Assembly (NCBI GenBank): GCA_018823125.1
Contig: JAHJIW010000010.1
Location: 93,396 to 157,395, forward strand
Length of the DNA stretch: 64,000 bases
Direction: 5' to 3'
Source: Candidatus Margulisiibacteriota bacterium
GTDB lineage: Bacteria; Margulisbacteria; WOR-1; JAHJIW01
Made by a program: the position numbers and the translations under genes. Numbering within the stretch: the stretch's first letter is position 1; every line of letters starts with the position of its first letter. Below are positions 20,267-62,453 of this stretch, one piece after another. The notes below the pieces were generated by a model. That model made no database searches. It saw nothing but the letters and a program-made list of their open reading frames with translations, and was not told where the DNA came from.

Positions 20267-21610
<1,344 letters not shown>

Positions 21611-21631
21611 AAAGTTAACAGGCGCAAAACC

Positions 21632-21671
21632 AAAGAAAAAAGCCTTCGAGAAATCGAAGGCTTTTTCTTTT
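21632..21671. terminator. bidirectional intrinsic terminator after gdhA
   Basis: A-tract, AGCCTTCGA-GAAA-TCGAAGGCT, T-tract, between convergent genes. Confidence 0.9.
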
Positions 21672-21691
21672 ACTCTTGATCCGCGATTTTT

Positions 21692-22120
21692 TTATGAACT
21701 TATCCAAACCACATAGGCTGAATAGAAAAGATAAATGCTAACCAGGATAAGAATAATAGAATATAATTTATAGGCCCCAACTACAAACTCATCCATCTGA
21801 AGCACTGATTTGCCTGCGCTTTTTGACAGCCAATCCAAAAAATTCGGGAAAAATAAATAAAGCAAACCGAAAAACAATAAAACCAGCCAGAAAGGATGCA
21901 GCAAGCCCAGTTCAGAAGACCTGAAAGCCAATAGCGCTATCCAACCCGCCAGAGCAATAAATATAATACCCACAACATATTTATAGGGTTTCAGCAATTC
22001 ATCAAGAGAAAAAATCACCTTATTCCAAAACGCGCAAACTTGCGTTAAATACCTAGGGGCAAACAAAAGCGTTACACCAAAAACCAAAATAAAGATCCCG
22101 GCTGCTAACAAAAAAATCAT
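21692..22120 (-). CDS. hypothetical membrane protein with two similar halves
   Basis: Hydrophobic; FAPRYL...SLDELL and FFPNFL...QMDEFV repeats; AAAGGAGG RBS. Confidence 0.7.
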   Translation of the reverse strand: MIFLLAAGIFILVFGVTLLFAPRYLTQVCAFWNKVIFSLDELLKPYKYVVGIIFIALAGWIALLAFRSSELGLLHPFWLVLLFFGLLYLFFPNFLDWLSKSAGKSVLQMDEFVVGAYKLYSIILILVSIYLFYSAYVVWISS

Positions 22121-22213
22121 CGCCTATTCCTCCTTTATATTATTTAGGATTCTTAGCAAATTATGCCCCCTTTATTTTAATTGTCAAGGCTAAAAAATCA
22201 TCTTCGGATATTT

Positions 22214-23557
22214 TTACAGCGCTTCCAAATACTTATCAATTTCCCAGGGGGTAATTTGCATACGGTAGTCATCAAATTCGGCTAATTTAGCATCACGGAA
22301 ATTATCAAAGGTGTGTTTACCCAGTGCTTCCATGATTACTTCGTCTTTTTCCAATTCTTCCACGGCGCGTTTGATCGAAAATGGCAGCATGCCTACATTT
22401 AATTCGCTTAGCCGTGCCGCATCTAGCTTATATACATCTTCTTCTACCGGAGCAGGAGGCTGCATACCTTTCTTAATGCCGTCTAATCCGGTTTTTAGCA
22501 TCGCGGCAAAAGCCAGATATGGATTACAAGACGGATCCGGGCAACGCAACTCTAACCTTGTTGATTGCTCTCTTCCCGGTGAATATCTTGGGATTCGAAT
22601 TAATGCCGAGCGATTAACCTGCCCCCAACAAACGTATACCGGCGCCTCGTAGCCTGAAACTAAACGCTTGTAAGAGTTAACCGTGGGCGCCACAATCGCC
22701 GTTAAAGCTCGAGCGTGTGCTAACTGTCCAGCTAAATAGTTATGCGCGATTCCCGAAAGCTTATATTTATCGTTAGCGTCAAAGAAAACATTTTTGCCGT
22801 TTTTATCAAACAAAGATTGGTGTACGTGCATCCCCGACCCCGCCTGACCATATAACGGTTTTGGCATGAAAGAAGCATACAGATCGTGTTGAGCCGCAAT
22901 CGATTTAATGACGTATTTTAATGTAATAGTATTATCGGCTGAAGAAAGCGCATCCGAATACCGAACATCAATTTCATGCTGTCCGGGTCCAACTTCGTGG
23001 TGACTCATCTCAGATATCATATTCATATTTTCCAGAGCTAATACAATATCTTCGCGGACTTCAGAAGCTAAATCGCGGGCCGTATAATCAAAATATCCCC
23101 CGATGTCATGCGGTACAGTAGTAATATCACCATTTTGCTTTTTAAACAGATAAAACTCTACTTCAGGACCAGTCATGAATTTATATCCCATCGCTTCCGC
23201 TTCTTTGACTACCCTTTTCAAGATAGAGCGCGGATCCCCTTCAAAAGGTTCACCATCTGGAGTGTGGACATCACAAATAAAACGCGCAGATTTTTTTTCG
23301 GCAGTAGTCCACGGAATAACCCGATAAGTATCCGGGTCGGGGAATAAAATCATGTCAGATTCGCAAATACGCACAAAACCTTGAATGCTGGAACCATCAA
23401 ACCAGATCCCTTTATCTAAAACATCTTCCAGTCTTTCAATCGGGATACTGACACTTTTCATGGCTCCTAAAATATCGATAAACTGCAGAAAAATAAATTT
23501 AATACCATCGGCGCGGGCTTGTTCCAATACTTTTTTCTTAGATAAATTTAATGACAC
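22214..23557 (-). CDS. glnA: glutamine synthetase type I
   Basis: FDGSSIQG, HHEVGPGQHE, FMPKP, GSGMHVH, NSYKRL, RLELRCPDP; GTG start at 23557 after GGAGG. Confidence 0.96.
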   Translation of the reverse strand: MSLNLSKKKVLEQARADGIKFIFLQFIDILGAMKSVSIPIERLEDVLDKGIWFDGSSIQGFVRICESDMILFPDPDTYRVIPWTTAEKKSARFICDVHTPDGEPFEGDPRSILKRVVKEAEAMGYKFMTGPEVEFYLFKKQNGDITTVPHDIGGYFDYTARDLASEVREDIVLALENMNMISEMSHHEVGPGQHEIDVRYSDALSSADNTITLKYVIKSIAAQHDLYASFMPKPLYGQAGSGMHVHQSLFDKNGKNVFFDANDKYKLSGIAHNYLAGQLAHARALTAIVAPTVNSYKRLVSGYEAPVYVCWGQVNRSALIRIPRYSPGREQSTRLELRCPDPSCNPYLAFAAMLKTGLDGIKKGMQPPAPVEEDVYKLDAARLSELNVGMLPFSIKRAVEELEKDEVIMEALGKHTFDNFRDAKLAEFDDYRMQITPWEIDKYLEAL

Positions 23558-23587
23558 GGGTCGACCTCCGTTATTTAAGATTATCCG

Positions 23588-23616
23588 ATTATACAGGAGA
23601 GACAAACGCTAAGCAA
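23588..23616 (-). promoter_or_regulatory. sigma70 promoter of glnA
   Basis: TTGCTT-N17-TATAAT. Confidence 0.6.
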
Positions 23617-36105: not shown

Positions 36106-36120
36106 AAAGGGGTGGTCCAT

Positions 36121-37452
36121 ATGCCAAAAGTATTAATTATGGGAGCCGGAATGGTTTCGAATCCGCTGGTAAGACACGTCTCAAGACTAAAGGGGTACCG
36201 CGTCACCGTTGCAGACCAAAACTTAAGCGCCGCACAAAGAGTGATTGGAAACCAAAGAAACTGCCGTTCAATCGCCTTAAACGCCACTGATATCGCAGCA
36301 GTAACAAGAGAAGCTAATCAGGCCGATATTGTGGTAAGCATATTGCCTCCGGAATTTCACGTTGGAGTAGCAAAAGCCTGTTTAGATGCCAATTCACATT
36401 TAGTAACCACTTCATATATCTCTCCCGACATGGAAGCCCTGCACGAACAATTTTTACAAAGAGGTCTTCTTTCTTTAAACGGGATGGGACTTGATCCGGG
36501 AATAGACATTCTTTCTGCCATGCAAATAATCCATAGAACCCAGGCCTCAGGCGGAAAGATCACCGGATTTTTCTCCGCCTGCGGCGGACTTCCTGCACCC
36601 GAAGCAAATAATAATCCCTTCGGATATAAATTTGCGTGGACGCCTTCCGGAGTTTTTAAAGCCATGACCAACGGCGCAGTTTATTTAAGAGACGGGAAAC
36701 AAGAATCGATTCCCGCTGATCAACTTTTTGCTAATCCCACGCAACATGTATTTGAAGAAATTGGCACACTCGAAGCCTACCCTAACCGCGACTCGGTTAG
36801 TTTTATTGAAAGCTTTGACCTTCAGGGGGTCAGCAACATGCTGCGCGCTACTTTTAGGTATCCAGGCTGGTGCAGATTCTGGCATAAAGCAGCCCACACC
36901 GGAATATTAAGTTTGGATCCTATCGCGAGCCCTAATTCATTGAGATTCGTGGATTTAACCAGCAGAATCATTGGCGTAAAATCATCGGCCTCTGTACGCG
37001 AAGCGTTTGCCGCAACCATTGGCGAAGAAAAAGATTCTGAAATAGTTGAAATGGCCAAATGGCTGGGACTTTTTTCAACTGACGCTATCCCGACTAGATT
37101 GGATTCACCCTTTGCGGTTATCGTTCATCTGGCCGCCAAAAGAATGAAATATGCTAAAGGTGAAAGAGACATGTCTGCCATGCAGCACGTATTTGATATT
37201 GAAACACGAGACGGAACCCGACAAAGACAAACCTCAATTCTGGTGGATTATGGTATTCCAAACGGCGATTCCTCAATGGCAAGAACAGTTGGATTAACCG
37301 CCGCCATAGGTGCAAAACTAATTGCGGAAGGAAAAATTACTGCCCGGGGAGTTATTTTACCCACTCTTCCAGAAATTTATAATCCAGCAATCGAACAACT
37401 GGAAGATATGGGAATCAAAATGGAACACCGCTTTGAAACCTTAGACGGTTAA
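36121..37452 (+). CDS. saccharopine dehydrogenase (glutamate-forming; Lys9 / AASS-SDH-like)
   Basis: KVLIMGAG, VTTSY, GLDPGID, CGGLPAPE..NNPFGYKFAW, EAYPNRDS, RATFRY, SSMARTVG. Confidence 0.88.
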   Translation: MPKVLIMGAGMVSNPLVRHVSRLKGYRVTVADQNLSAAQRVIGNQRNCRSIALNATDIAAVTREANQADIVVSILPPEFHVGVAKACLDANSHLVTTSYISPDMEALHEQFLQRGLLSLNGMGLDPGIDILSAMQIIHRTQASGGKITGFFSACGGLPAPEANNNPFGYKFAWTPSGVFKAMTNGAVYLRDGKQESIPADQLFANPTQHVFEEIGTLEAYPNRDSVSFIESFDLQGVSNMLRATFRYPGWCRFWHKAAHTGILSLDPIASPNSLRFVDLTSRIIGVKSSASVREAFAATIGEEKDSEIVEMAKWLGLFSTDAIPTRLDSPFAVIVHLAAKRMKYAKGERDMSAMQHVFDIETRDGTRQRQTSILVDYGIPNGDSSMARTVGLTAAIGAKLIAEGKITARGVILPTLPEIYNPAIEQLEDMGIKMEHRFETLDG

Positions 37453-38208
37453 TTATGATGCCGTCGGCCTTTGATTTTCCAGCTCGAATACGGGCGAGGT
37501 AAAAATTGTCATAAAGGCAGAGTCGCCTAAATAAAAATTATTTTCTGGATGGGTCCGGCTGCCGGTCAAACAAATATCCTGCGGATGAAACCAGCTCACA
37601 AACACAAACTTAATGCCCTGCCCCATCAAAGTTTGGATCGTACGCCAAAGTTCAGCCTGCTCATTCAAAAAAGAATCATTAAAATAAAATACCTTTACCT
37701 TAGCCCATCGCAGCTTTAAAAAGGGAAGCTCAATATCTTCTTCGATGTCCCGGATTACTGGGAATAGCCACTGACATTCATCAATAATTATAACTCTCGA
37801 CTTTTTGCCAGCCGCCAAAGTTTCCGCTTTCGTTTTTCTAAAGCACTCTCTTACTACCTGCGAGCTAACTTTCTCCCTGATAAATTCATATACTAGGAGC
37901 CTCTCCCCCATTTTTAAATAAGCGGCTTTTCCTAAATGTTCCACGAGTACCGGTTGAAGCACATTTTGCGCCCAGTATGTTTTACCGATCTTAGTATTAT
38001 TTCTAAAACAGTAATGGCGGTTTCTAACGCTGTCATGATAATGCCGGCCGCTAACATAGATCGATTCATATTTTTTTAGTCGGTCCACCGCCACCTGCGC
38101 GGCTTCACGGGCGGCTCCACGTCTAACTCTGTACACAAAACCGGGAACCAACTGATAATGGCCTTTCTGAATATGAGGACAGACTGGTGCCTTAATTGAA
38201 GTTCTCAT
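37453..38208 (-). CDS. hypothetical protein with degenerate P-loop NTPase motifs
   Basis: NNTKIGKT (Walker-A-like) and VIIIDE (Walker-B-like); ATG at 38208 overlaps the end of the amidohydrolase. Confidence 0.55.
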   Translation of the reverse strand: MRTSIKAPVCPHIQKGHYQLVPGFVYRVRRGAAREAAQVAVDRLKKYESIYVSGRHYHDSVRNRHYCFRNNTKIGKTYWAQNVLQPVLVEHLGKAAYLKMGERLLVYEFIREKVSSQVVRECFRKTKAETLAAGKKSRVIIIDECQWLFPVIRDIEEDIELPFLKLRWAKVKVFYFNDSFLNEQAELWRTIQTLMGQGIKFVFVSWFHPQDICLTGSRTHPENNFYLGDSAFMTIFTSPVFELENQRPTAS

Positions 38209-39784
38209 AAACCACTCCGCCATCAAAAATAGTTAAAAGCGGACGGGTCGATAGTAAATCCGGCGCCGGAATTTTAAAAAAGTCAGGACGCAATACAACC
38301 AAATCCGCAATATATCCGGGCTTTACCGCACCTTCAACTTTTTCGCGGCAGGCAGCATAGGCATTTCCATAAATATATGCCCCAAGCGCCTGCTTTAAAG
38401 TTAAACGCTGGTTAGGATACCAGCCGCCGCGCGGAGTTCCGTCTAACCGCGTCCGCTGGGTCGCAGCAAATAAGCCTTTCATGGGATTGGGGGTTTCAAT
38501 AGGAGCATCTGAACTAAAGGCCAGGGTAACTCTCGCTTCGTACATTTCTCTCATGCGATAAGCGCGGCGCGCTCTTCTTCCCAAAAACTCATTCGCAGTT
38601 GATATATCATCCGGAAGTTGTGACGGCTGCATCGATGCAATAATCCCTAACCAGGCAATACGCCTTAACTCATGGGTTCTTAAAAGTTGCACGTGTTCAA
38701 TCCTTGACCGCAAATTTGGATCAATCGATCGCGAAGCTTCAATGGCATCAATAGCATTTTTATTAGCACGCTCGCCAATGGCATGAATTGCTGCAGGAAA
38801 ACCATGTCTTGCGGACTCAACCACTTCTTCAATTAATTGATCGCGGGGAATCACTTCTTCTCCGCAGGAAAACGTGCCATTGTAAGGTTTAAACGTTAAT
38901 GCGGTTTGCGCTCCCAGCGTACCGTCAGAAATAAATTTTGTTCCCAATACCGAAAATCTATCGTCTTCTTCCACGCGCGCCGCTAAAGCCAGCTCCAGAT
39001 CTCTAAATAAAAATCCCATCCGGATCCTGAAATTTAACTGCCCGTTATCTCTCAAAGACTGATAAGCCGCATATTCTTCTCTTCCGGAAACGTCGCCAAA
39101 ACCAACCCCAAAGGTATGGGTAGAAGTTATGCCTAGCGAAAACATTTGCGGTATGCCAATGCTTAACGCAGCCTTTATGGCCTCCTGATCCGGTTTGGGT
39201 ATATGTGGCTTTACCAGATCGCAAGCTGTCTCCAAAAACACGCCGGTAGGATTACCAGCTGCATCCCTTATAATTTTTCCGCCTTCCGGATCCGCTGTGT
39301 TACGGGTAATTCCAGCTCTCTCCAATACTTCCGAATTAACCCAAAGCAAATGCGAACAATAACTAGTCAAAGCCGTTGGGATTTTTCCGGTTATCGCATC
39401 CAACTCCTGCCGGATCGGGAATCTTCCGCCAAATCTATCTTTATGCCAACCACCGCCCCGGATCCACTGCCCCACATCTAACCCTTCTGTTCTGCCTCTC
39501 ACTGCTTCCAGCATTTTTTCCGGAGTTTTAGCTTCTCTCAAGTCAAGTTGAGTCAGCCTTAATGAGTAATCAACAAAATGAGTATGGCCATCTACAAAAG
39601 CCGGCATGAGGACGGCGCCTTTCAGGTCAACATCGCTCCCCAAACAAGGTGGTGCTTTTCTTTGGGCGGGTCGCACTTCGATAATTCTTCCGTGCTGGCA
39701 TACTACATCACTAAGTCCCCGGTCAAGCCGCGGGGTTTTTGGATGGAAAACGCGGGCATTTCTCAAAACTAATCTACCTGGCAT
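38192..39784 (-). CDS. amidohydrolase family 3 (YtcJ-like) protein
   Basis: PAFVDGHTH, KFISDG, HAIGERA, RIEHVQ, FSSDAP, GYIADLVVL. Confidence 0.88.
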   Translation of the reverse strand: MPGRLVLRNARVFHPKTPRLDRGLSDVVCQHGRIIEVRPAQRKAPPCLGSDVDLKGAVLMPAFVDGHTHFVDYSLRLTQLDLREAKTPEKMLEAVRGRTEGLDVGQWIRGGGWHKDRFGGRFPIRQELDAITGKIPTALTSYCSHLLWVNSEVLERAGITRNTADPEGGKIIRDAAGNPTGVFLETACDLVKPHIPKPDQEAIKAALSIGIPQMFSLGITSTHTFGVGFGDVSGREEYAAYQSLRDNGQLNFRIRMGFLFRDLELALAARVEEDDRFSVLGTKFISDGTLGAQTALTFKPYNGTFSCGEEVIPRDQLIEEVVESARHGFPAAIHAIGERANKNAIDAIEASRSIDPNLRSRIEHVQLLRTHELRRIAWLGIIASMQPSQLPDDISTANEFLGRRARRAYRMREMYEARVTLAFSSDAPIETPNPMKGLFAATQRTRLDGTPRGGWYPNQRLTLKQALGAYIYGNAYAACREKVEGAVKPGYIADLVVLRPDFFKIPAPDLLSTRPLLTIFDGGVVYENFN

Positions 39785-39796: not shown

Positions 39797-39833
39797 AAAA
39801 CAGCAAAGCCGATCCTAAAAATTTAGGATCGGC
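39797..39833 (-). terminator. intrinsic terminator between LKR and the amidohydrolase
   Basis: GCCGATCCTAAA / TTTAGGATCGGC stem followed by TTTGCTGTTTT, directly before the GAGGG RBS. Confidence 0.75.
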
Positions 39834-39849
39834 CTGCTAAAATAATAAA

Positions 39850-41283
39850 CTATATATTCACATCGTGTTTATCTTTTAATTCTGCACCGTGTTCAATTAG
39901 TGCGTCCAGCATTAATTGATTATCCGCATACCTTGGAGTAAATTCTCCTCTCCAAACAATAACCGCATTTCTTATCTGCGGCGGAAGTGAATTTCTTCCT
40001 ACAGCAAACGGTTGATTATATTCTGCGCTAGCAATACCTGAAACAAACGGCAAAAGCATACGGCTAAATTCCGCCGCCGAAACTGCCGGCAATTCACAAG
40101 GCATGGTTTCTACTGCGTTAACCGGAATCCCAGTACCGTTCACTCCATAAGTAATTCTACCGGTGCTAGGATTATATACATAAAATGGATTTTCAGGTTT
40201 AGTCCCCGCTAGCGTTCCATGCATCGGACCTTGGCCAGTAGTTGCATTAAATACGTCGCATCCTACATCGCCAATGGCTACCAAACGATTATCCGAGGTA
40301 CTTAACGCCGATGCCATAAGATCTCTCGAGACCAAAGCTGGCTGTCCAGGTTTCCAAAGCGCATTATTCATAAGCAACGTAAAGAGATGCAGATAGCGAC
40401 CCATAGTAGATTCATAAGCCTCGGGATCAGCATCTAAATCTGTTTTTGAACCCGGTCTTCCATCAATCCTCTGGTATCTTCCATTTGGTCCGATTCGGTC
40501 AAACAAAACGCTGTAAACTTCATTTCTCGAAAGCGATTGCAGGGTTGCCGGATCCAGGAGATCGCTGGGCGAAAGGCTTTTTGCTCCGAGAGCATTATAT
40601 ATTTCAAGCGAACCTTGTCCGCAGCGTCCACCACCCGTAAATCCAACAATCATGGGCGGCATACCATCTGGAAGTCCATTCTTTTTAATATCCTTTCCGA
40701 TTTTTCCTAGCTGCGCCTTGATCTGATCAATTGCATCCTCGCCAGAATAATCAAAAGCCTGCCTGACGGATAAAAATGGATTTTCAATTCCCATCACATC
40801 CAATCTTCTACCTAACAGATGTAAAGAATCAGTCATACCTACAATTCCCGCAAACCGGCCAAAAGCAACTAACCTCTCCCCCCTATCATTTGTAATATAT
40901 TCATAATCAACATAAGTTGCTCGGGCATCTACAATATTTTGCAGCATATTCATATTTTCCGGCTGTCCCTTAGTAACATGCCCAAAAAATACATAGACTC
41001 CATTTTCCTTAAAAACATCCGCCGGAATTTGTTTTACCCCAAACATCAATGGTTTCTCCGGACTTAGCTCGGTAACAATGCGGGCACCGGCATCCCGGTA
41101 CGCTTGCGCTGGATAAATCCTGAGTGGAGACCTTTGAACTGTAACTTCTAATGCATGCTGGCCGGTTAATTCCGCAACCGCAGACGGATTTAAAGTTACC
41201 CTTCTTTCATAACGATGCATCACTTCACGCGGGATCTGGACGGTTCTGGCTCTTTTTTGAACTGGTCGTGCTACGCTTGTCAT
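39850..41283 (-). CDS. lysine-ketoglutarate reductase / Lys1-type saccharopine dehydrogenase (AlaDh/PNT fold)
   Basis: YERRV, GVKQ, FFGHVTKGQ, DYEYI...RLVAFGRFAG, GDVGCD, VETMPCELP match the LKR domain of AASS; ATG at 41283 after AAAGGGGG. Confidence 0.85.
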   Translation of the reverse strand: MTSVARPVQKRARTVQIPREVMHRYERRVTLNPSAVAELTGQHALEVTVQRSPLRIYPAQAYRDAGARIVTELSPEKPLMFGVKQIPADVFKENGVYVFFGHVTKGQPENMNMLQNIVDARATYVDYEYITNDRGERLVAFGRFAGIVGMTDSLHLLGRRLDVMGIENPFLSVRQAFDYSGEDAIDQIKAQLGKIGKDIKKNGLPDGMPPMIVGFTGGGRCGQGSLEIYNALGAKSLSPSDLLDPATLQSLSRNEVYSVLFDRIGPNGRYQRIDGRPGSKTDLDADPEAYESTMGRYLHLFTLLMNNALWKPGQPALVSRDLMASALSTSDNRLVAIGDVGCDVFNATTGQGPMHGTLAGTKPENPFYVYNPSTGRITYGVNGTGIPVNAVETMPCELPAVSAAEFSRMLLPFVSGIASAEYNQPFAVGRNSLPPQIRNAVIVWRGEFTPRYADNQLMLDALIEHGAELKDKHDVNI

Positions 41284-41334: not shown

Positions 41335-43311
41335 TTAGAATGTATCCTTTTTTGCACCTCCTTCAAACTTATCTTTTGTTAATCCCATATTTAATTTTGG
41401 CTTCATGGTCGGAAACAAGATAATATCTCGAATAGAAGCCGAGTTGGTTACCACCATAGCTAACCGGTCAATTCCAATTCCCAATCCACCCGTAGGTGGC
41501 ATCCCAATTTCTAAAGCCTGCACAAAGTTTTCATCAAAAGGATGCGCTTCCTCGTCTCCTTGCCCAGCTCTCACCACCTGTTCTTCAAAACGCAATCTTT
41601 GATCGATCGGATTATTTAATTCCGAAAAGGCATTGGCAATTTCCATTCCGCCAGCCACAAAAGCTTCAAAGCGTTCTACATATTCCGGATCCTCCGGACA
41701 GCGTTTGGCTAAAGGGGTGGTAACCGTTGGATACCGGGTCACAAAAGTGGGTTGAACCAGCTGGCTTTCGGCTAATTCTTCAAAAAGCGTGGCAATGATC
41801 CATCCACGCTGCATGTTATCTTCAAGTTCAATTCCTCTTTCTTCGGCAATGGCTCTTAAACTGTCAACACTGGCTCCCATTACCGATACCCCACCCATCT
41901 GTTCAATTGCAGCCTCCATGGTCACCCTTCTCCAGGGCGGAGCAAAATTTAGCAGCGTTCCTTGATAATCAATTTGATGTTTGCCGCAAACTTCCCTGAC
42001 AATGTGCGCCACCATAGTTTCGGTAATCCACATCATTTGCTCATAGTCAGTATAAGCCCAGTATAATTCCATGGAAGTAAACTCAGGATTATGTTTCTTA
42101 TCAATCCCTTCGTTTCTAAAAATTCTTCCAATTTCAAAAACCCTTTCGTAACCACCGGCAATCAAGCGCTTTAGATCAAGTTCGGTCGCAATGCGCAGGG
42201 TCAAATCCATACCCAAAGCATGTGATGTAGTGACAAAGGGTCGCGCAGCGGCTCCGCCGTGCATTTCCTGCAATATCGGCGTTTCAACCTCCATAAATTC
42301 ATGTCCCCATAAAAACTGGCGCATTTCGCGCACTACCTGACTGCGGGCTCTAAATCTTGCTCTAACCGAAGCATTCGAAGCCAAATGCATATAGCGTTGA
42401 CGCTGCTGAAGCTCGGGATCATCCAGTCCCATATGGGTTCCTTCTTCACTGGTTTTTCCCGGCAGAGGACGAATGGCTGATGCCAGAAGCGTATAATCTT
42501 CTATCCTTAAAGTTAATTCACCGGTCCGGGTATGAAACATGCGCCCTTGCAGCCCTAAAAAGTCACCCGTGATTATTTGTTTTCTAAATAAACCATATGC
42601 TTCTTCCCCAACTTCGTCGCTTTGCATAAAAATCTGAACACGGCCGGACTCATCTTCAATGTGTCCGAAAGAAATTCTTCCCTGTTCTCTTTTTAATACT
42701 AATCGGCCGGCAATCCTGACCTCGGTTGGCAAGGCTCCTCCCTCGCCGATTGCTTCGCACTGACTTCTTAAATCACCAATATGATGGGTCCGGTCATATT
42801 TTGTAGCGCCATAAGGATTAATCCCCTGCTCCAACAAATTTTGCACCCGGGTATACCCTTGAATTACAGTTGGGTTCCAGGTTGCAGGATATGGAGACAA
42901 AATAATGTCTGAAACTCTTAACACAACTTCGCCGCGATGATCATGACTGACATCCCCAATAAAACCAAAATTATCTCCGTTTCCCATAGAAATCCTTAAT
43001 GCATCAATGCTTTGCTGAGGGATAGATCCCTTAGCAAACATAATTTGAATTTCGCCACTTTCATCCGTAACTTTTCCTTGTGATGCTTTATGGATTTTTC
43101 CTTTAATGACTAAATTCCCGATAATTTGAATACCCTGCGGCAGGTTAGCTCCTTGCGGCAGCGCTTCGCACCGGGTTCTCAATTCTGCGACGCTGTGGGT
43201 ACGATTAAAAGTGTTGGTAGAATGGGGCTTAAAACCTCCTCGTATAACAGAATGCAGATTCCCGTATCCCCTAATCCTTGGAGCAGTTGCCTTTGAAGTT
43301 GTAGATACCAT
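41335..43311 (-). CDS. second class II lysyl-tRNA synthetase with a duplicated N-terminal OB fold
   Basis: Motif 1 EVETPIL, motif 2 FRNEGIDKKHNPEF, EIANAFSELN, motif 3 GLGIGIDR; two RTH...DESG.(I/V)QI blocks; ATG at 43311 after AAGGAG. Confidence 0.9.
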   Translation of the reverse strand: MVSTTSKATAPRIRGYGNLHSVIRGGFKPHSTNTFNRTHSVAELRTRCEALPQGANLPQGIQIIGNLVIKGKIHKASQGKVTDESGEIQIMFAKGSIPQQSIDALRISMGNGDNFGFIGDVSHDHRGEVVLRVSDIILSPYPATWNPTVIQGYTRVQNLLEQGINPYGATKYDRTHHIGDLRSQCEAIGEGGALPTEVRIAGRLVLKREQGRISFGHIEDESGRVQIFMQSDEVGEEAYGLFRKQIITGDFLGLQGRMFHTRTGELTLRIEDYTLLASAIRPLPGKTSEEGTHMGLDDPELQQRQRYMHLASNASVRARFRARSQVVREMRQFLWGHEFMEVETPILQEMHGGAAARPFVTTSHALGMDLTLRIATELDLKRLIAGGYERVFEIGRIFRNEGIDKKHNPEFTSMELYWAYTDYEQMMWITETMVAHIVREVCGKHQIDYQGTLLNFAPPWRRVTMEAAIEQMGGVSVMGASVDSLRAIAEERGIELEDNMQRGWIIATLFEELAESQLVQPTFVTRYPTVTTPLAKRCPEDPEYVERFEAFVAGGMEIANAFSELNNPIDQRLRFEEQVVRAGQGDEEAHPFDENFVQALEIGMPPTGGLGIGIDRLAMVVTNSASIRDIILFPTMKPKLNMGLTKDKFEGGAKKDTF

Positions 43312-43333
43312 TTTGTACTCCTTTCTTTTTTTC

Positions 43334-43370
43334 AAAATAAAAAAGCCGTTCCGATTTGTCGGGACGGCTT
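43334..43370 (-). terminator. intrinsic terminator in the LysRS2 leader
   Basis: AAGCCGT-c-CCGA-CAAA-TCGG-a-ACGGCTT followed by TTTTATTTT. Confidence 0.75.
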
Positions 43371-43402
43371 CTTGAACCTTTTATCAAAGATTGGACTTTT
43401 GT

Positions 43403-43441
43403 CTCTAGTAGTATATCGGGAGGTAGTTAAATAAATTTCAC
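43403..43441 (-). promoter_or_regulatory. sigma28-like promoter, copy D
   Basis: GTGAAATTT-N13-CCGATA-N7-AGAG. Confidence 0.75.
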
Positions 43442-43525
43442 TTTTTCTGGGGTTTATTTTGGGGTTAGCGGCCAAATCGAGGATAAAGCATTAAGGGCAC
43501 ATTTTGCCAGTAACTCGTTACATCT

Positions 43526-44800
43526 TCATTTTACACTCGGCAAGGTATTATATCCTTGCGGGATTACATAAATCAAAGGATTTGGCGGCAGGTGTCGTAC
43601 CGCCTCCGCTAAAGCGTCCTGCATATTCGATACGGGGATGATTTGCATTTTCTTAACCTGGGAATGATCCATTTTAGTTAACCAAATAACTTTAAAGGTT
43701 TCGGCTTTTTTAACTGCGGCATAAACGGTATGTTTTGAAATTAAAAATTGGCGCTTTAAGTCTTTAGCAATCGCTTCCGCACTGCCGATTTCAGCCCAGG
43801 CCAAATATTCGGGACGGGGATAGCCCATCTCTGATTCGGCAACTACAATTAAAACCCCACCCGGCTTCAATACGTATGAAGCATTTTCCATCGCCTTATG
43901 CGCCTGTACAAAATCAATATCTTTGGGATGCCCGCCCGCCGAAACAATCACTAAATCGGCTTTCTCCTTAACTGCTACCCGCGCATAACGATCGATAGTT
44001 TCACAACCAGAGAGATGCGCTTTTTCGATATCTCCCGAAAAGACAAAAGACAGCTCTTTATCCTGATTTAATACTACGTTAATAATAAAAGTGGGGACTA
44101 AGAGCTTCGCCGCTTCCAGCATATCCTCGTGCACCGGATTATTGATTAAGTTTCCGGTCACTGCATATTTGCGTTGTCCATGCTCTTTTATTTCGGCTAG
44201 AACAAATTTATGATTATTTTGAATGGTTTCATAAGATGAAATCCCGGGCAATGCCGTTTTGCGTCCTCCGGCAAACCCGGCAAAATAATGATAGGTAATT
44301 CCGCCGATAAAAATGCGCTTATCCGCTTCCACCGCGATCTTATTCATGAAAATTTCATTGCCGCGGGAAGTTTTGCCGATTTTGACCAAATTATTTTTAT
44401 TTTCTGAATCATGATCAAGCAGTTTTACCCGCTTTGCGGCGGCGTTGCCCACAATTTTTTCTTGTTCCGCCCGGGTATGGGAAAGATGAGTGCCTCTGGA
44501 AAAAATTACCGTAATATTTTCATCCGGAACTCCAAATTTATTGAGCTCATCTAACAGCAGCGGCAAAATTACGTCGGTTTTGGTATGACGGGTTTTATCC
44601 GGAACGCAAATGGCAACCGTATCCCCCGCTTTGATAAAATCTTTGAGCGGCGGACTATCAATCGGGCTAGAAAATGACGCGATAATCGACTGCGCCGCGT
44701 TTTTGACCGCGGGCATGGTTTTGCCTTCGAGTTTTCCTAATAATTTTCCCGGAGGCAAGTCAAATGCAACTTCAGCTTTACCGTAGTTTAGTTTAAGCAT
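43526..44800 (-). CDS. larA: LarA family nickel-pincer racemase/epimerase
   Basis: VPDKTR, GTH, DHD, HYFAGFAGGRK, NH, QAHK motifs. Confidence 0.82.
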   Translation of the reverse strand: MLKLNYGKAEVAFDLPPGKLLGKLEGKTMPAVKNAAQSIIASFSSPIDSPPLKDFIKAGDTVAICVPDKTRHTKTDVILPLLLDELNKFGVPDENITVIFSRGTHLSHTRAEQEKIVGNAAAKRVKLLDHDSENKNNLVKIGKTSRGNEIFMNKIAVEADKRIFIGGITYHYFAGFAGGRKTALPGISSYETIQNNHKFVLAEIKEHGQRKYAVTGNLINNPVHEDMLEAAKLLVPTFIINVVLNQDKELSFVFSGDIEKAHLSGCETIDRYARVAVKEKADLVIVSAGGHPKDIDFVQAHKAMENASYVLKPGGVLIVVAESEMGYPRPEYLAWAEIGSAEAIAKDLKRQFLISKHTVYAAVKKAETFKVIWLTKMDHSQVKKMQIIPVSNMQDALAEAVRHLPPNPLIYVIPQGYNTLPSVK

Positions 44801-49253: not shown

Positions 49254-49901
49254 CTAGCGAGTTTCTACTTTGCGCGGACGAATGACCTTGGAGTAGTCTT
49301 TGGGCGGCTGTCTAGTTTCCATTTTGTCTAACTTGCCTTGTTTTTCCAGCTTTTTATAAATCATGTACCAGGCACAATCCTGATTTGGATTTACTTCGCA
49401 TTTGCCGTCGTGTGATCCGCCGCAGGGTCCATTTAAAAGCCGTTTAGAACAACGGGCTACCGGGCAAATGCCTCCGGTTTTTTCCAAAACACAGTCGCCG
49501 CACATCACACACATTTCATAAAACTTACCAATGCGCTTGGTGCGGCCTAAAAAGAGCGAATCCAGCGCCGGAATGACCGGTAGTTCGCTAATATCCGCAA
49601 TGGTTTGTACCCCTGCCCCACATGACAGCACTAAAACCGCATCCGCAGTTTTAAATACCCCGCTCCCAACTTCTTTAAAGTCGATTCGATTTAAGCGGTC
49701 ATCACAGGGCGCCTCTAAAACTTTGGAAGCTAATACTTCTTTACCGGCTTTCTCCAGTTTTTTAACTATGGCGGCTACTTCTTTTTCTCCACCGGTACCG
49801 CAACTAGTGGCACAGCGGCTGCAGCCAAAAACAATAATCTTTTCGGCGCCTTCCAGCGACTTTAAAATTTTTTCAAACTGTTTTTGTTCGGTAATAATCA
49901 A
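49254..49901 (-). CDS. methylenetetrahydrofolate reductase C-terminal domain (MetV-like) protein
   Basis: CATSCGTGG, LSCGAGVQ, CVMCGDC, CPVARCSK.LLNGPCGG, DCAW. Confidence 0.85.
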   Translation of the reverse strand: MIITEQKQFEKILKSLEGAEKIIVFGCSRCATSCGTGGEKEVAAIVKKLEKAGKEVLASKVLEAPCDDRLNRIDFKEVGSGVFKTADAVLVLSCGAGVQTIADISELPVIPALDSLFLGRTKRIGKFYEMCVMCGDCVLEKTGGICPVARCSKRLLNGPCGGSHDGKCEVNPNQDCAWYMIYKKLEKQGKLDKMETRQPPKDYSKVIRPRKVETR

Positions 49902-49903
49902 GA

Positions 49904-51418
49904 TTATTCTTCCTTCGTAAAAACGATATCTTCAGCTTGCTTCGCTTCGGGGCGCATGTGCGGGAATAAAATTACGTCTCGAATGGACGATGAATTGGTC
50001 ATCAGCATCACCAAGCGATCGATTCCGATGCCCAGTCCGCCCGCCGGCGGCATGCCGTATTCGAGCGCATTTAAATAATCCTCATCCATCGATTCGGTTT
50101 CCATATCGCCTTCGGCTTTGCGTTTTAGTTGTTCTTCGAAACGCGCTCTTTGATCCCGGGGATCATTTAATTCCGAAAATGCATTCGCAAGCTCCATCCC
50201 GGCCACCACTACTTCAAAACGTTCTACTAATCTATCATTTCCCCGTTTTTTCTTAGCCAAAGGCGAAGTTTCGATCGGGTAATCGGTAATAAAAGTAGGC
50301 TGAATGATATGGGGCTCGACAAACTTGTCATAAATTAAGTTGATCAGTTTACCTTTGCGCTCTTCTTCGTAGCCTTCGATGCCTTTACCCTTTAAATATT
50401 TATGCAATTCTTCTTCAGATAAATTAATATCGATCCCGGCATGCTCTTTTACTAAATCTGCTAAAGTCATTCTTTTCCAAGGAGCTTTAAAATCTAAATC
50501 AAAGTCTTTATATTTAACTTTAGTGGTGCCTAAAACATCGTTCATTACTTTTTCTACTAAAGCTTCGGTATTTTTCATGACTTCTTCATAGTCAACGTAG
50601 GCTTGATAAGCTTCGAGCATGGTATATTCGGGATTATGTTTGTAGGAGATGCCTTCGTTTCTAAAAGATTTACCGATTTCAAAAACTTTTTCTAAGCCTC
50701 CTACCAAAAGCCGCTTTAAATAAAGCTCGGGAGCAATCCGCATGTAAAGTTTCATGTCCAAAGCATTATGATAAGACTCAAACGGCCGCGCGGCGGCCCC
50801 ACCCGCCTGCACCTGCAGGATCGGAGTTTCCACTTCGATAAAACCTTGATCAATTAAAAACCGCCGAATCGCAGCAATAATGTTACTGCGGATAATGAAA
50901 AGGTCGCGCACCTCTGCGTTGGAAATTAAATCCACGTAACGCTGACGGTAACGAATCTCTTTATTGGTTAAACCGTGCCATTTTTCGGGCAGTGGGTGCA
51001 AAGATTTAGTTAATAAATTGAATTTATTAACCTTAACCGTAATTTCGCCGGTTTTGGTTTTAAAAACATGGCCGTCAATACCAATAAAGTCGCCAATATC
51101 TAGTTTTTGGAAAAGTTTAAAGCGATCATCGCCAATGACGTCTTTTTTAGCGTAAATCTGAATTTTTCCGTCACCATCTAAAATATGACCAAAACAAGTT
51201 TTTCCGTGACCACGCCGGGTGACAAACCGTCCGGCAATGCGTATTTCCTCTTTTGATTCTTCAGTAATATCGTTAAATTTATCTAAAACCTCTTTTGAAG
51301 TATGGGTTCGAGAATAACTATACGAGTAAGGAGTTTCCCCCGCCGCTTCAAATTCCTCAATTTTATCGTAGCGCTGTTTAATCAGTTCGCTTAATTCGGG
51401 GGAATCTTTCTTTTCCAT
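49904..51418 (-). CDS. lysS: lysine--tRNA ligase (canonical class II)
   Basis: Single OB domain, RIAPELYLKR, FRNEG, ELANAFSELND, GLGIGIDR. Confidence 0.97.
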   Translation of the reverse strand: MEKKDSPELSELIKQRYDKIEEFEAAGETPYSYSYSRTHTSKEVLDKFNDITEESKEEIRIAGRFVTRRGHGKTCFGHILDGDGKIQIYAKKDVIGDDRFKLFQKLDIGDFIGIDGHVFKTKTGEITVKVNKFNLLTKSLHPLPEKWHGLTNKEIRYRQRYVDLISNAEVRDLFIIRSNIIAAIRRFLIDQGFIEVETPILQVQAGGAAARPFESYHNALDMKLYMRIAPELYLKRLLVGGLEKVFEIGKSFRNEGISYKHNPEYTMLEAYQAYVDYEEVMKNTEALVEKVMNDVLGTTKVKYKDFDLDFKAPWKRMTLADLVKEHAGIDINLSEEELHKYLKGKGIEGYEEERKGKLINLIYDKFVEPHIIQPTFITDYPIETSPLAKKKRGNDRLVERFEVVVAGMELANAFSELNDPRDQRARFEEQLKRKAEGDMETESMDEDYLNALEYGMPPAGGLGIGIDRLVMLMTNSSSIRDVILFPHMRPEAKQAEDIVFTKEE

Positions 51419-51424
51419 GATGCT

Positions 51425-52135
51425 TTATCCTTTTTCTGCAGCAATCATCTGCAAACCTTTTAGAGTTAATAATTCGTCAATTATATCAAAATTCACTGCT
51501 TTTGATAGCATTCGAGCATATCCTCCGGTAGCCACTACCTTGGCCGGTCCCAACTCATGCTTAAAACGCTTAATTAACTCATTCACTAATCCGATATAAC
51601 CGATGTAAATACCAGCCTTCATGGCTTCGACGGTATCTTTGCCAATAGCCTTATCGGTGTCACTAATCATAATTTTGGGTAATTTTGCAGTTTTATCGTG
51701 CAGGGCATCTCTGGAAATTTCAATTCCCGGAGCAATGGCCCCACCCTGATAAGTCCCATCCTCGGATACCGCACAAAACGTGGTAGCCGTACCAAAATCA
51801 ACTACAATTGCCGGAGCACCATAAAGTTTTTGGGCGGCATACGCATTCACTAACCGGTCGATCCCGATTTCTTTTTTGTTAGTCAGGGCAATTTTCATCT
51901 TAATATCATTATGCTGCACAAAATGCGGCTCGATTTTTAATTTTTCAACTGCCAGATGTTCGATCTCATCTTCGCGGGACGGAACCACGGAAGCAACAAT
52001 AATCTTATCGATCTTTGCCCATTCGGTAACCGGAAGCTTGGAAGGACTCGGCGCCCGCCCGGATCGAACCAGATTCTTCCCGTCAAAAACCCCAAAAGTG
52101 ATCGACGTATTTCCGATATCTAATGCCAATAACAT
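51425..52135 (-). CDS. coaX: type III pantothenate kinase
   Basis: MLLALDIGNT, GIDRL, VDFGTATT, GGAIAPG, ATGG; start at ATG 52135, 7 nt after TATAAT. Confidence 0.93.
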   Translation of the reverse strand: MLLALDIGNTSITFGVFDGKNLVRSGRAPSPSKLPVTEWAKIDKIIVASVVPSREDEIEHLAVEKLKIEPHFVQHNDIKMKIALTNKKEIGIDRLVNAYAAQKLYGAPAIVVDFGTATTFCAVSEDGTYQGGAIAPGIEISRDALHDKTAKLPKIMISDTDKAIGKDTVEAMKAGIYIGYIGLVNELIKRFKHELGPAKVVATGGYARMLSKAVNFDIIDELLTLKGLQMIAAEKG

Positions 52136-52203
52136 GGGTAACATTATAGCTTGGAATGGGCTGGGAGGAAAGCAGGGTTTGGCTAAAATAATTGGCCTAA
52201 AAA

Positions 52204-58979: not shown

Positions 58980-61121
58980 TCACGAAGGAGAAGCTACCGG
59001 CAAGTAAACGGTGAAGGTGGTCCCCTCGCCAACGATCGAGTCAACCGCGATCGAACCTTTATGTTCCTCAACGATCTTCTGGGTAATCGCTAAACCCAGC
59101 CCGGTACCGGCTTCTTTGGTCGTAAAGAAGGGGTTGAAAATTTCTTTTAGTCTTTCTTTAGCAATTCCCATGCCGGTATCGGTAATTTTTAATGCTACCC
59201 GGGCTCCCATGTCATCCGCTGAGATGGTTAGCTCTCCTCCCCTGCGCATGGCCTGAATCGCGTTACCTACCAGATTTAATAAAACCTGCATCATGCGGTT
59301 TTTGTCTCCCATAACCTGCGGAAGATCCTTGGGAAGCTGTTTTTTAACCGTAACTGAGTTTTTGCGGGCTTCATAACTGGTAACGGTGATCGCCTTATCA
59401 ATCGATTCTTCTAGGTTAAGCGGAATTAGTTTTAACTCGTGCTGCCTTGAATATTCAAGTAGTCCCTCCACAATACTGCGCATGCGGGTAACTTCTTCGG
59501 GCAGCATTTTCATGGTAGTTTCTTTAAACTGGGCATCATCCCACTTAAGCGGCATCATTTGTGAAACGGTTTGAATAAACGCCAACGGATTTTTAAGTTC
59601 GTGAACGATACCGGCGGCCATGGTTCCCAGCGCCGCCATCTTTTCGGATTTCATTATAATGTCGCGGCTCTTCACTTGTTCGTCATATAATATGGAGTTT
59701 TCTAGAGCAACCGCCGCCTGGTTGGATAAGGTACGCAGTAACTCTAAATCATCACTAGTATACCTATCCTGAGATTTCTTATCGCCCAACGCAATGATGC
59801 CAATCAGCTTTCTTCCCAAATGTTTACCTTTTGAAAAGGCTGGAACAATTACCTCGGCCTTAAACTTATCCATCTCCTCTTTTAATTGAATCAGTCGATT
59901 TTTTTCATTCTCAGCCATGCCTTCCGCGCTGATACGATGAACGATCTCATCCCGAATGATCATGTCCTCAGTTTTATTTAACTCATCAATAATGGCATAG
60001 TTTTCGCTGATAGATACTCCTTTGAGATTTTCTACATTACCCACCACCGCCACAATTACGTATCTTTTTGATTTTTCGTTATGGATTAATGCGAGTGCCC
60101 CTTCTAAGCGCATAATTCTGGTTACCAATCGAACAATCAAATCAACTAAACGGTCTAAATTAGTAAGGTGGGCCATCGCTCCTGAAATGTCTTTCAGCGC
60201 CTTCTGGTAGTTATATTTTTTTCTAAAGAAAATCTTGTCGGTTGATTGGGTAATAAACTCCTCGAGCGGTTTAAATCCTACCGCAATGGCAACGGCGGCA
60301 ATAAAAGTTAATACCCAGTTATTAATCGGCAAAATACCTTGTAGTAATGTTCTGGCGGCAATGATTATTCCGGAATATACTGCTGCTACAAAGATAATGA
60401 GCGCGGAGTAAATAATACCTTTGCGGATGATGACTTCGATGTCCATCAAGCGGTGTTTAACGATGGCGTAGGCCATAAAAAAGACTAAAATTAGTGGGCC
60501 TATTGGCCCAATGAATTCCGTTCTCGAATAATGAAAAAATACTGGCAAAAGCAAACTAAAAGTCGCCCCGATACTATAAGCAATTACTAATCCTATTAGC
60601 ACATACTTCAATTGATTTTTTTCTACACTTGAACCAGAAACCCTATATTTCCTGAGAAGATTAAAAAAGCTATAAAGCACAAACACACAAAAATACAATG
60701 CAAAAATTGAATAAAAGAAACCAAAATCAATATATCTTATGCCATGAGTTACTGTAATACCTTTTACATAGAGATTAGTAAAGGAAAGCGAAGTAAAAAA
60801 TAGCCCAATCGCATAAACAAAAATTGTTCTTTTAATATCTATGTGCCCACTACTATTGGGAAAATACCACGAGAACAATACCAAAGTAGGCGGATGTAAG
60901 GAAGCGAAGAAAATTGCTAGTTTATAAGCAAAACTAGGATCGTAAAAAAACAGGGTATGATATTCTAATAATAAATTTGCCCCCGCATATCCAGTTATAA
61001 ATAAGCTTAAAAGAAAGAAAATTCTATTTACAATATTACGAGGACCTTTAATTAATACAAATAAACCAATAGCAAATGACAAAATCGCGGACAAAAATTG
61101 ATAATAAATAATTAGATTCAT
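58980..61121 (-). CDS. 7TM-GAF sensor histidine kinase
   Basis: N-terminal 7TM region, HRLMDI linker, GAF-like segment, H-box HELKNPL, N-box NAIQA, GTGLGL. Confidence 0.9.
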   Translation of the reverse strand: MNLIIYYQFLSAILSFAIGLFVLIKGPRNIVNRIFFLLSLFITGYAGANLLLEYHTLFFYDPSFAYKLAIFFASLHPPTLVLFSWYFPNSSGHIDIKRTIFVYAIGLFFTSLSFTNLYVKGITVTHGIRYIDFGFFYSIFALYFCVFVLYSFFNLLRKYRVSGSSVEKNQLKYVLIGLVIAYSIGATFSLLLPVFFHYSRTEFIGPIGPLILVFFMAYAIVKHRLMDIEVIIRKGIIYSALIIFVAAVYSGIIIAARTLLQGILPINNWVLTFIAAVAIAVGFKPLEEFITQSTDKIFFRKKYNYQKALKDISGAMAHLTNLDRLVDLIVRLVTRIMRLEGALALIHNEKSKRYVIVAVVGNVENLKGVSISENYAIIDELNKTEDMIIRDEIVHRISAEGMAENEKNRLIQLKEEMDKFKAEVIVPAFSKGKHLGRKLIGIIALGDKKSQDRYTSDDLELLRTLSNQAAVALENSILYDEQVKSRDIIMKSEKMAALGTMAAGIVHELKNPLAFIQTVSQMMPLKWDDAQFKETTMKMLPEEVTRMRSIVEGLLEYSRQHELKLIPLNLEESIDKAITVTSYEARKNSVTVKKQLPKDLPQVMGDKNRMMQVLLNLVGNAIQAMRRGGELTISADDMGARVALKITDTGMGIAKERLKEIFNPFFTTKEAGTGLGLAITQKIVEEHKGSIAVDSIVGEGTTFTVYLPVASPS

Positions 61122-61122
61122 C

Positions 61123-62166
61123 TTACCATTTTATTAAATTCGCACCATACATCCATCCTGCCCCAGCAGCTACCAAAAGAACTAAATCGCCTTTTTTGAA
61201 CTTATTTTCTTTATTGGCCATATCTAGAGAGATTGGCAAACAGGCATCTGCAGTATCACCAATATTATCGAAATGAATAATCATTTTTTCATACGGATAA
61301 TCAATATCTTTTGCAAAACGTCGAACAAGTGGCAAAGTTGGCTGATGAGGAATTATCCAGTCTATCTTATCGAGATTATTTTTGCTTTTAGATAAAATCA
61401 TATTTGTTGCCTTCTTCATAAACCTTGGAGTAAGTCCCACAATCAATCTTAAATTTAGATCCCAGAAATGCAATCCATTCTTTATCGTTTCTTCAGTTGG
61501 CCTCATTTTTGAACCACTATCATGTAAAAACAAAGGATTTCTTTTGCCATCGCTACCAATATAACTACAAAGAACGCCCCCGTCATCATTATGGCTTGCC
61601 TTCAAAACCAGCGCGCCCGCACCATCACCAAAAATCGTTGCATTAATGGCTTGTCCCTCAATACATTTGGGATGAGAAAAATCAAGATATGGAGACAATA
61701 CTTCACTTCCAGTTACTAAAGCTGTATTAAAAAAACCATTCTCAATAAATTGAGTAGCAACGGTCAAAGCATGTGCAAATCCTCCGCAACCAGAAAGAAT
61801 GCCTATAGCATCTGCATTTTTTGCTTTTAACAATTCTTGAACCTGACAAGCCATATTTGGGATAGAATAATCAGGTGAAGCGGTTGCCGTAACAATTAAA
61901 TCTAAGTCTTCCGCCTTCATATTGGCAGCATCAAGCGCTCTTTTTGCAGCTTGAGTAGTAAGTTCTGAATTAGTAAAAGCAACCTCATTCGTATCTAAAT
62001 TTCTAACAAAATACCGCGTTTTTACTCCAATGCTTTTTAAATTTTCTTCCAAGTTTATTTGCGGAAAATATTTCTTCATATCTTCTGTAGAGTATTTATT
62101 GGGCGGCAAAAACGATCCCGTTCCAACGATTTCAGCAAACAGCTTTTTATTTATTTCTTTTCGCAA
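61123..62166 (-). CDS. FabH-like (KAS III family) condensing enzyme, atypical
   Basis: GTGSFLP, SGCGGF (Cys), FGDGAGA, PHQ (His), GDTADA at the GNTSAA position, GAGWMYG; TTG start at 62166 after GAGGGGG. Confidence 0.85.
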   Translation of the reverse strand: MRKEINKKLFAEIVGTGSFLPPNKYSTEDMKKYFPQINLEENLKSIGVKTRYFVRNLDTNEVAFTNSELTTQAAKRALDAANMKAEDLDLIVTATASPDYSIPNMACQVQELLKAKNADAIGILSGCGGFAHALTVATQFIENGFFNTALVTGSEVLSPYLDFSHPKCIEGQAINATIFGDGAGALVLKASHNDDGGVLCSYIGSDGKRNPLFLHDSGSKMRPTEETIKNGLHFWDLNLRLIVGLTPRFMKKATNMILSKSKNNLDKIDWIIPHQPTLPLVRRFAKDIDYPYEKMIIHFDNIGDTADACLPISLDMANKENKFKKGDLVLLVAAGAGWMYGANLIKW

Positions 62167-62453
62167 TAATTCTCCCCCTCTCTGCTGCATTTTTGGTTTT
62201 AAAGCACCAAAAACTAAATCAATTATCTCATAAAAATATTCGCTTATCAAGAAACGACAGAAACGACAAGGCAATACGAAAATAATTTTAAAATTCGTCC
62301 GTTCATAAATATAATGCCTTCTCTTAATTGCTAAGAATCATTTAATCAAGAAATAAAACACCCAAATTTTACTATATAATATCCTGAGTATCTTGATAAC
62401 AGCAATAACTTGAGAATTACAGACTAAAAAGAGTATAATAATTAAACTTTAAA

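Follow-up and report, generated by a model that had tools for sequence, protein, structure and literature searches.

A second lysyl-tRNA synthetase with a duplicated anticodon-binding module, encoded next to a lysine-ketoglutarate reductase-like protein in Candidatus Margulisiibacteriota

The contig JAHJIW010000010.1 of a Candidatus Margulisiibacteriota bacterium (assembly GCA_018823125.1) was analyzed over a window of 64,000 nucleotides, positions 93,396 to 157,395 of its forward strand; coordinates below are those of the window. The gene at 41335..43311 on the minus strand codes for a second lysyl-tRNA synthetase (LysRS) of 658 residues, hereafter LysRS*, with two copies of the N-terminal module that carries an oligonucleotide/oligosaccharide-binding (OB) fold. 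OB1 (42877..43311, aa 1 to ~145), a helix followed by an OB barrel, is the extra module; OB2 (42442..42876, aa ~146-290) is the canonical anticodon-binding domain and precedes the class II catalytic domain (41335..42441). LysRS* is followed, 49 nt downstream on the same strand, by a lysine-ketoglutarate reductase-like gene (LKR*, 39850..41283). The canonical lysS of the genome lies at 49904..51418, also on the minus strand, and codes for an enzyme of 504 aa with a single OB fold. A first reading of this DNA from the letters only (the sequence-only reading) had noted a second, tandem-OB LysRS at this position; we confirmed that observation and found its interpretation to be partly supported. 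Three points went beyond it, namely that LysRS* belongs to a rare LKR-coupled clade, that OB1 is restricted to one species, and that the public gene call begins inside OB1.

The open reading frame of LysRS* is uninterrupted from 43335 to 41335, with TTG 43335 as its furthest upstream start. That codon is embedded in a T-run and lacks a ribosome-binding site, and ATG 43311 is preceded at 7 nt by AAAGGAG, the strongest Shine-Dalgarno sequence among the candidate starts. ATG 43311 is therefore the best start, giving the 658-aa protein; a 666-aa numbering was used for the self-BLASTP coordinates, in which block 1 corresponds to aa 26-146. The public gene call of 550 aa starts at an internal Met at ~42987 (Met109), within OB1, and leaves ~540 nt as "intergenic." Because that call begins inside OB1, the domain duplication has gone unannotated.

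LysRS* is a class II LysRS. Pfam detected the tRNA-synt_2 class II core (2.4e-85) and two stretches of tRNA_anti-codon, and the protein passed the cutoffs of the LysRS models TIGR00499 (lysS_bact; 563.9 bits versus 427.6) and NF001756 (654.3 bits versus 468), in line with the earlier claim of a second LysRS beside the canonical lysS. Over aa 152-639, its identity to solved bacterial LysRS is 45% (42-45% across structures). LysRS* has the same helix, OB fold, and class II core as the bacterial enzymes (E. coli LysS and LysU; G. stearothermophilus 3a74/3e9h; 9jkl), and the lysine, ATP, and Mg ligands and the anticodon triad are identical; unlike them, it carries OB1 in front, a set of clade-specific changes, and an N-terminal YPxTWN motif. 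In alignments to 1e1o and to 19 homologues, all of the LysU residues E240, R262, E264, H270, N271, F274, E278, Y280, E414, E421, N424, F426, E428, and R480 are kept in LysRS*. These positions are the lysine, ATP, and Mg ligands of LysU, with the numbering checked by alignment. The sequence-only reading was thus right that the lysine- and ATP-site motifs are intact. It had also singled out ELDLK, and the residues were read correctly, but the substitution is not diagnostic, because the position, equivalent to LysU Y242, is Tyr or His in bona fide LysRS (the other clade members and G. stearothermophilus LysRS have His). We rejected an extra Gly in VAGGME as an insertion, as the same GG precedes MEIANA in E. 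coli and Thermus LysRS.

Other members of the LysRS superfamily were considered as identities for LysRS*. EpmA/PoxA/GenX and LysX are paralogues of LysRS that came to transfer lysine outside translation; EpmA has no OB domain and LysX needs a lysyl-phosphatidylglycerol synthase domain, and LysRS* differs on both counts. EpmA/PoxA/GenX was rejected on the score against TIGR00462 (218.8 versus a cutoff of 286.9) and the presence of two OB modules, and LysX (MprF-LysRS) on the score against NF002821 (513 versus 742), with no LPG_synthase_C or transmembrane domain found in the protein. Nor does LysRS* resemble a recent duplicate of the LysU type: LysU is nearly identical to LysS, whereas LysRS* is 46% identical to the resident lysS product and belongs to an old, separate clade.

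OB1 is a true tandem duplicate of the LysRS N-terminal OB module. When the first 161 residues were compared with the next 200 by BLASTP, OB1 and OB2 aligned over 121 aa without gaps at 31% identity (E 5e-25), which bears out the tandem duplication proposed earlier. The repeat unit is the whole LysRS N-terminal module, comprising an alpha-helix, the G-I/F-x-P and xRTH motifs, a second helix, and a five-strand barrel. A domain scan, suggested by the sequence-only reading as a check, did find tRNA_anti-codon twice in the whole protein, but OB1 by itself scored 18.5 bits (E 0.0019) on PF01336, under the gathering score of 27, compared with 47.5 bits for OB2. Structure prediction, the other check proposed there, supported the fold. 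In the full-length AlphaFold model, in which OB1 had no alignment rows, its secondary-structure order was the same as that of OB2, with a predicted local distance difference test (pLDDT) score of 55-74. With 61 LysRS N-domains aligned, OB1 was modeled as a helix and a five-strand OB barrel with a pLDDT of 80.8 (80-96 in the barrel), and the best 50 Foldseek matches of this model in the PDB were all LysRS N-terminal domains. At the DNA level, the repeat is limited to one 23-nt stretch with a 78% match, whose two copies lie 411 nt apart, in register with the protein repeat. Such sparse similarity indicates that the duplication is old and not an assembly artefact; misassembly is also unlikely given that the protein is present on four contigs from several sources. 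The OB1 reading frame is open over 150 codons, and its coding bias is 0.16 in frame, compared with -0.18 and -0.54 in the other two frames.

The duplicate has diverged at the positions that read the anticodon. Class IIb synthetases contact the anticodon base U35 through an Arg, a Phe, and a Gln. All three are present in OB2 (R203, F215, and Q226, which are invariant together with G202), whereas OB1 has lost two of them and retains only the Gln. In an alignment of 61 LysRS, Asn66 of OB1 replaces the near-invariant Arg of "AGR" and Gln78 replaces the Phe of "GKxxF," while Gly65, Gln89, Asp113, Gly119, and Glu128 are retained. The degeneracy of the first OB, noted by the sequence-only reading as a Phe-to-Gln change, thus extends to the Arg. 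OB1 also has a pI of 9.7 and a net charge of +5, compared with a pI of 5.8 for OB2. The YPxTWN motif, found at the extreme N-terminus of the single-OB members of the clade, lies in LysRS* within the linker between the OB modules, as YPATWNP(TVIQ) (42850..42891, minus strand). Its placement indicates that the enzyme was already complete when OB1 was joined to its N-terminus. The nearest relatives of OB1 are the N-domains of a protein fragment (P0122, 35% identity) and of the clade member at locus L169 (32%), followed by its own OB2 (31%), with the resident lysS product at 25%; this closeness to clade-type N-domains points to an intragenic duplication within this lineage.

OB1 is confined to this one species, and all relatives of LysRS* have a single OB. 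A back-translated OB1 scan of one genome per GTDB species found no double-OB LysRS, and an exhaustive phmmer search of 1.84 billion representatives with OB1 returned only ordinary or clade-type single N-domains, at no more than 35% identity. In all loci of the clade, tblastn with OB1 matched just the single OB, and a metagenome scan with a clade-specific motif added three further full members, all with one OB. Our literature search found no report of a class IIb synthetase with a tandem copy of its own anticodon-binding domain.

We then placed LysRS* among its homologues. Only nine clusters among 5.8 billion clustered proteins are 55-65% identical to it, the remainder being at most 52% identical; those nine have one OB each and a length of ~500 aa, and two of them bear the names Saganbacteria and Margulisbacteria. 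Neighbour-joining placed the LysRS* clade on a long stem, with support from 100 of 100 bootstraps, and not as sister to the housekeeping LysRS of Margulisiibacteriota. Compared with 222 ordinary LysRS, at positions at least 85% conserved in the latter, the clade has changed Tyr to Q303 (RYRQRY to RQRQRY), Asp to R526 (DYP to RYP), and Ser to T532 (SPLAK to TPLAK, within the signature TPLAKRCP), all outside the amino acid pocket. Judged from sequence and gene order, LysRS* is a rare, well-separated, and previously undescribed LKR-coupled LysRS subfamily, found here and in a few other genomes of Margulisiibacteriota or Saganbacteria type.

The resident lysS has a different history. Its product shares 76-78% identity with Margulisiibacteriota LysRS and 60-66% with many WOR-1/Saganbacteria enzymes, and its coaX-lysS gene order is that of the phylum. 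These two features indicate that the organism belongs to Margulisiibacteriota, that lysS is the vertically inherited housekeeping gene, and that LysRS* is an accessory paralogue. The order coaX (type III pantothenate kinase), lysS, and a methylenetetrahydrofolate reductase (MTHFR)-related gene, conserved in Margulisiibacteriota, was seen in the window at 49254-52144 on the minus strand and at loci L170 and L173. The third gene of this set matches only PF12225 ("MTHFR C-terminal") in the window, and PF02219 (MTHFR) in the relatives.

The coupling with LKR* is strict. LysRS* is directly followed by LKR* in all 10 loci with enough sequence (the window, L002/L003, L004, L005, L166/L167, L168, L169, L174, L175/L256, and L178), with gaps of -4 to ~90 nt; at some loci the stop and start codons of the two genes overlap, by 4 nt in L002. 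LKR* and the LKR domain of human AASS align over their entire length (PDB 8dda/8e8u; E 1e-44; aa 28-470 versus 25-463), a full-length homology that places it among predicted lysine-ketoglutarate reductases. Its subfamily (46-72% identity) matches the LysRS* clade in its small size, and beyond it the scores drop sharply; the subfamily is at most 40% identical to the LKR of the widespread bacterial pairs of LKR and saccharopine dehydrogenase (SDH) genes. Among the 80 best ordinary bacterial LKR loci, from Bacteroidales, Anaerolineae, Acidobacteriota, and others, SDH mostly adjoined LKR and no LysRS was nearby. One lone LKR* member (P0277, 46% identical; L254 8001-9377 and L255 256-1632) adjoins a type II dehydroquinase gene, with no LysRS*. 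LKR* is thus not always found with LysRS*, whereas LysRS* is always found with LKR*. A terminator-like hairpin on the minus strand (39806..39835) directly follows LKR*, and another hairpin precedes LysRS*; the hairpins on both sides delimit a two-gene LysRS*-LKR* unit. A literature search on a link between LysRS and saccharopine, or on lysine metabolism in Margulisbacteria, yielded nothing relevant.

An SDH gene is near LysRS* in 7 of the 10 loci. In the window, it lies at 36112..37452 on the plus strand and codes for a protein with Sacchrp_dh_NADP and Sacchrp_dh_C domains, the second half of a split AASS. AASS joins LKR and SDH; the same halves of the pathway occur near LysRS*, but as separate genes and with a distinct LKR* subfamily. 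Adjacent LKR-SDH pairs are widespread in Bacteroidales, Anaerolineae, Acidobacteriota, WOR-3, and other metagenome-assembled genomes, with 509 loci confirmed by tblastn in GTDB representative genomes, and the saccharopine pathway may be commoner among anaerobic bacteria than is usually assumed.

Two further families recur beside the pair. A small, uncharacterised P-loop NTPase, encoded in the window at 37453..38226 on the minus strand (Walker A NxxGxGKT, Walker B hhhIDE), adjoins LysRS*-LKR* in five loci, namely the window, L002 (4170-4790), L004 (11150-11848), L166 (6116-6769, minus strand), and L174 (10703-11410). Its family members have 206-257 aa, a Walker B hhhIDEChW, and a conserved VFVSWxHP motif; they had no Pfam, NCBIfam, PDB, or PADLOC assignment, and a motif scan of GTDB representative genomes gave no match. 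A radical-SAM/SPASM-like protein of 390-420 aa, assigned on weak similarity, is encoded near LysRS*-LKR* in four loci (L004 4185-5375, L166 6769-7941, and L175 10840-12012, all on the minus strand, and L178 4516-5787); no such protein was found within ~10 kb on either side of LysRS* on the contig of the window. In a Saganbacteria genome (GCA_016223245.1; L002 4833-10277), LysRS*, LKR*, and the P-loop gene are directly followed by kamA (Radical_SAM and LAM_C), kdd, kamD, and kamE, so that the module there is embedded in a predicted lysine fermentation cluster. An Amidohydro_3 family hydrolase gene (38192..39784, minus strand) adjoins LKR* in the window and in L169, two loci in all. A dedicated tRNA gene was found neither within the window nor next to the module at any of 11 loci, and no inhibitor biosynthetic cluster occurs among the window neighbours.

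The region upstream of LysRS* was analyzed for regulatory elements. A G+C-rich hairpin with a T-run (43340..43373, minus strand) ends ~25 nt before the start codon. It is not conserved among relatives, and the simplest explanation is that it terminates the larA-like gene upstream. That gene, at 43526-44800 on the minus strand, codes for a homologue of LarA-family nickel-pincer-cofactor racemases, with LarAH10 2-hydroxyacid racemase as the best model (459 bits, below the cutoff of 540). Rfam gave no match to the region upstream of LysRS* at the gathering score and none that was meaningful at E values up to 10. Apart from the one terminator-like hairpin, 43311-43530 has no excess structure (folding z = -1.1 versus shuffles), and we rejected regulation by a T-box or lysine riboswitch on these two grounds. 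In the relatives, the LysRS* gene starts 16-35 nt behind the preceding gene, with no leader. The idea that the extra domain binds a leader RNA at 43406-43335 thus found no support.

Further away in the window, 17922-23605 holds genes for an ammonium transporter, glutamate dehydrogenase, and glutamine synthetase beside PAS/histidine-kinase and FIST sensor genes. The stretches at 18-19 kb and 21-22 kb stand out by their unusually high AT skew, and the G+C content is 30-36% at 60001-64000, compared with 40-47% elsewhere.

Several known systems resemble LysRS* in part. E. coli LysU is likewise a second LysRS in the same genome that is associated with lysine breakdown. Its gene lies near cadBA. The LysU side involves decarboxylation, whereas the partner pathway of LysRS* is that of saccharopine and the coupling is operonic. 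According to Brevet 1995, as cited in PMC5078493, cadaverine was reported to affect LysU less than LysS. A copy of an aminoacyl-tRNA synthetase (aaRS) gene also stands beside the enzyme that consumes the same amino acid in the case of tyrS in the tyramine cluster and hisS in the histamine cluster (PMC3315439). Those clusters occur in Firmicutes, include decarboxylases, and are under T-box control; for LysRS*, neither a T-box nor a riboswitch was found. An extra OB fold joined to a complete synthetase, as in LysRS*, is found in aaRS fusions with PF01588 (Trbp111/EMAPII-type), which include LysRS of 640-665 aa (P0030, P0033, P0068, and P0101; some from Firmicutes). Appended domains of this type raise tRNA affinity in other aaRS. 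OB1 is unlike PF01588 in that it is a diverged copy of the enzyme's own PF01336-like anticodon domain and is N-terminal.

Taken together, these data suggest that LysRS* is an accessory, tRNA(Lys)-charging LysRS specialised for lysine catabolism, and that OB1 serves as a non-specific tRNA-binding appendage, a proposal to which we give a probability of about one half. LysRS* would charge tRNA(Lys) with L-lysine as a catalytically competent, non-housekeeping class II enzyme. It would be co-transcribed with LKR*, usually near SDH, and would maintain the charging of tRNA(Lys) during lysine degradation, through either a higher affinity for lysine or resistance to inhibitory intermediates derived from it, by analogy with LysU and cadaverine and with tyrS and hisS in decarboxylation clusters. 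A tandem duplication within the gene, in this species only, would have put OB1 before a complete enzyme. As OB1 has lost the Arg and Phe for U35, it probably does not read the anticodon; with its OB fold retained and its basic charge, it may act in cis as a non-specific binder of tRNA (or RNA) that raises tRNA affinity. The altered tRNA specificity suggested by the sequence-only reading is unlikely, as is altered amino acid specificity, since the lysine contacts and the anticodon triad of OB2 are all conserved.

Several points weigh against this proposal. OB1 is a singleton without orthologues and might be a tolerated appendage without function, and the internal start at Met109 has a moderate Shine-Dalgarno sequence, making an isoform without most of OB1 possible. 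The 4-nt overlap in L002, a sign of tight translational coupling, would also fit a physical LysRS*-LKR* complex. The catabolic direction of LKR and SDH is an assumption, and the same enzymes run in reverse in fungal lysine biosynthesis. Simple lysine catabolism leaves the recurrent P-loop NTPase and radical-SAM-like neighbours unexplained, and LysRS* might be the sole LysRS in some of the lineages that carry it.

The first of these points leads to an unlikely alternative, in which OB1 is the functionless leftover of a tolerated in-frame duplication and LysRS*, with the internal Met perhaps as its main translation start, does not differ in behaviour from its single-OB relatives. Those relatives work with one OB, the key anticodon residues are gone from OB1, its coding-bias score is the lowest of the three parts of the gene (0.16 versus 0.25 and 0.33), and the single-species occurrence and the Shine-Dalgarno sequence before the internal ATG fit as well. 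However, OB1 has diverged to 31% identity and yet has no stop or frameshift in its 150 codons, which argues for long-term selection on the reading frame. OB1 has also retained its core Gly, its hydrophobic pattern, and its Gln, Asp, and Glu positions, its predicted fold is confident, and the shift to a pI of 9.7 looks directional. Translation from Met109 would moreover give an orphan half-barrel, and the Shine-Dalgarno sequence of ATG 43311 is stronger than that of any other start. The recurrent neighbours, for their part, suggest a rather more doubtful scheme in which LysRS* supplies activated lysine, as Lys-tRNA or lysyl-AMP, to a non-ribosomal route together with LKR*, the P-loop NTPase, and the radical-SAM-like protein. 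Systems of similar logic are GluRS/Glu-tRNA reductase, SerRS/PSTK/SepSecS, EpmA/EpmB, and PylSBCD. The strict LysRS*-LKR* adjacency with its occasional stop/start overlaps, the similarly small subfamilies, which appear to co-evolve, and the recurrence of the P-loop gene in five loci and of the radical-SAM/SPASM-like gene in four would all agree with it, and Q303, R526, and T532, outside the pocket, could reflect a changed macromolecular partner. Yet LKR* aligns end to end with AASS-LKR, which acts on free lysine, SDH, the next step of the ordinary saccharopine pathway, is usually nearby, no dedicated tRNA gene accompanies the module, and the P-loop and radical-SAM genes are missing from several loci. 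As the anticodon domain and the full charging apparatus are kept, ordinary translation is the simplest use of the enzyme. Similarly doubtful is a broader version, in which LysRS*, LKR*, and the P-loop NTPase, sometimes with the radical-SAM-like protein, would form an undescribed module that hands activated lysine to a dehydrogenase or gates the flux of lysine between translation and degradation, OB1 adapting that interaction rather than reading the anticodon.

It is very unlikely that LysRS* is a stress or alarmone enzyme making dinucleotides of the diadenosine tetraphosphate (Ap4A) type, or an inhibitor-insensitive self-resistance copy, with OB1 having a regulatory role such as binding its own mRNA. 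Duplicate aaRS genes often confer inhibitor resistance, although the neighbours of LysRS* include no biosynthetic cluster for an inhibitor. The hairpin and T-run just ahead of the start codon would suit regulation at the mRNA, but the leader has neither an Rfam match nor excess structure, and the relatives have no leader at all. Ap4A synthesis is a side reaction general to class II LysRS, with LysU as its main source in E. coli (PMC5078493), and no sequence feature marks an Ap4A-specialised enzyme. Charging of tRNA(Lys) in support of lysine catabolism, with OB1 as a tRNA-binding appendage, is the interpretation that we favour.

If it holds, OB1 would be a natural case of an aaRS domain that was duplicated and put to a new use, hidden by automated annotation that started the gene within it. 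The strict pairing of LysRS* and LKR* matters more, as it would reveal a LysRS subfamily, so far unrecognised, that is linked to lysine breakdown in a phylum without cultivated members, and may offer a test case for how a cell protects tRNA charging, or diverts an activated amino acid, while consuming that same amino acid.

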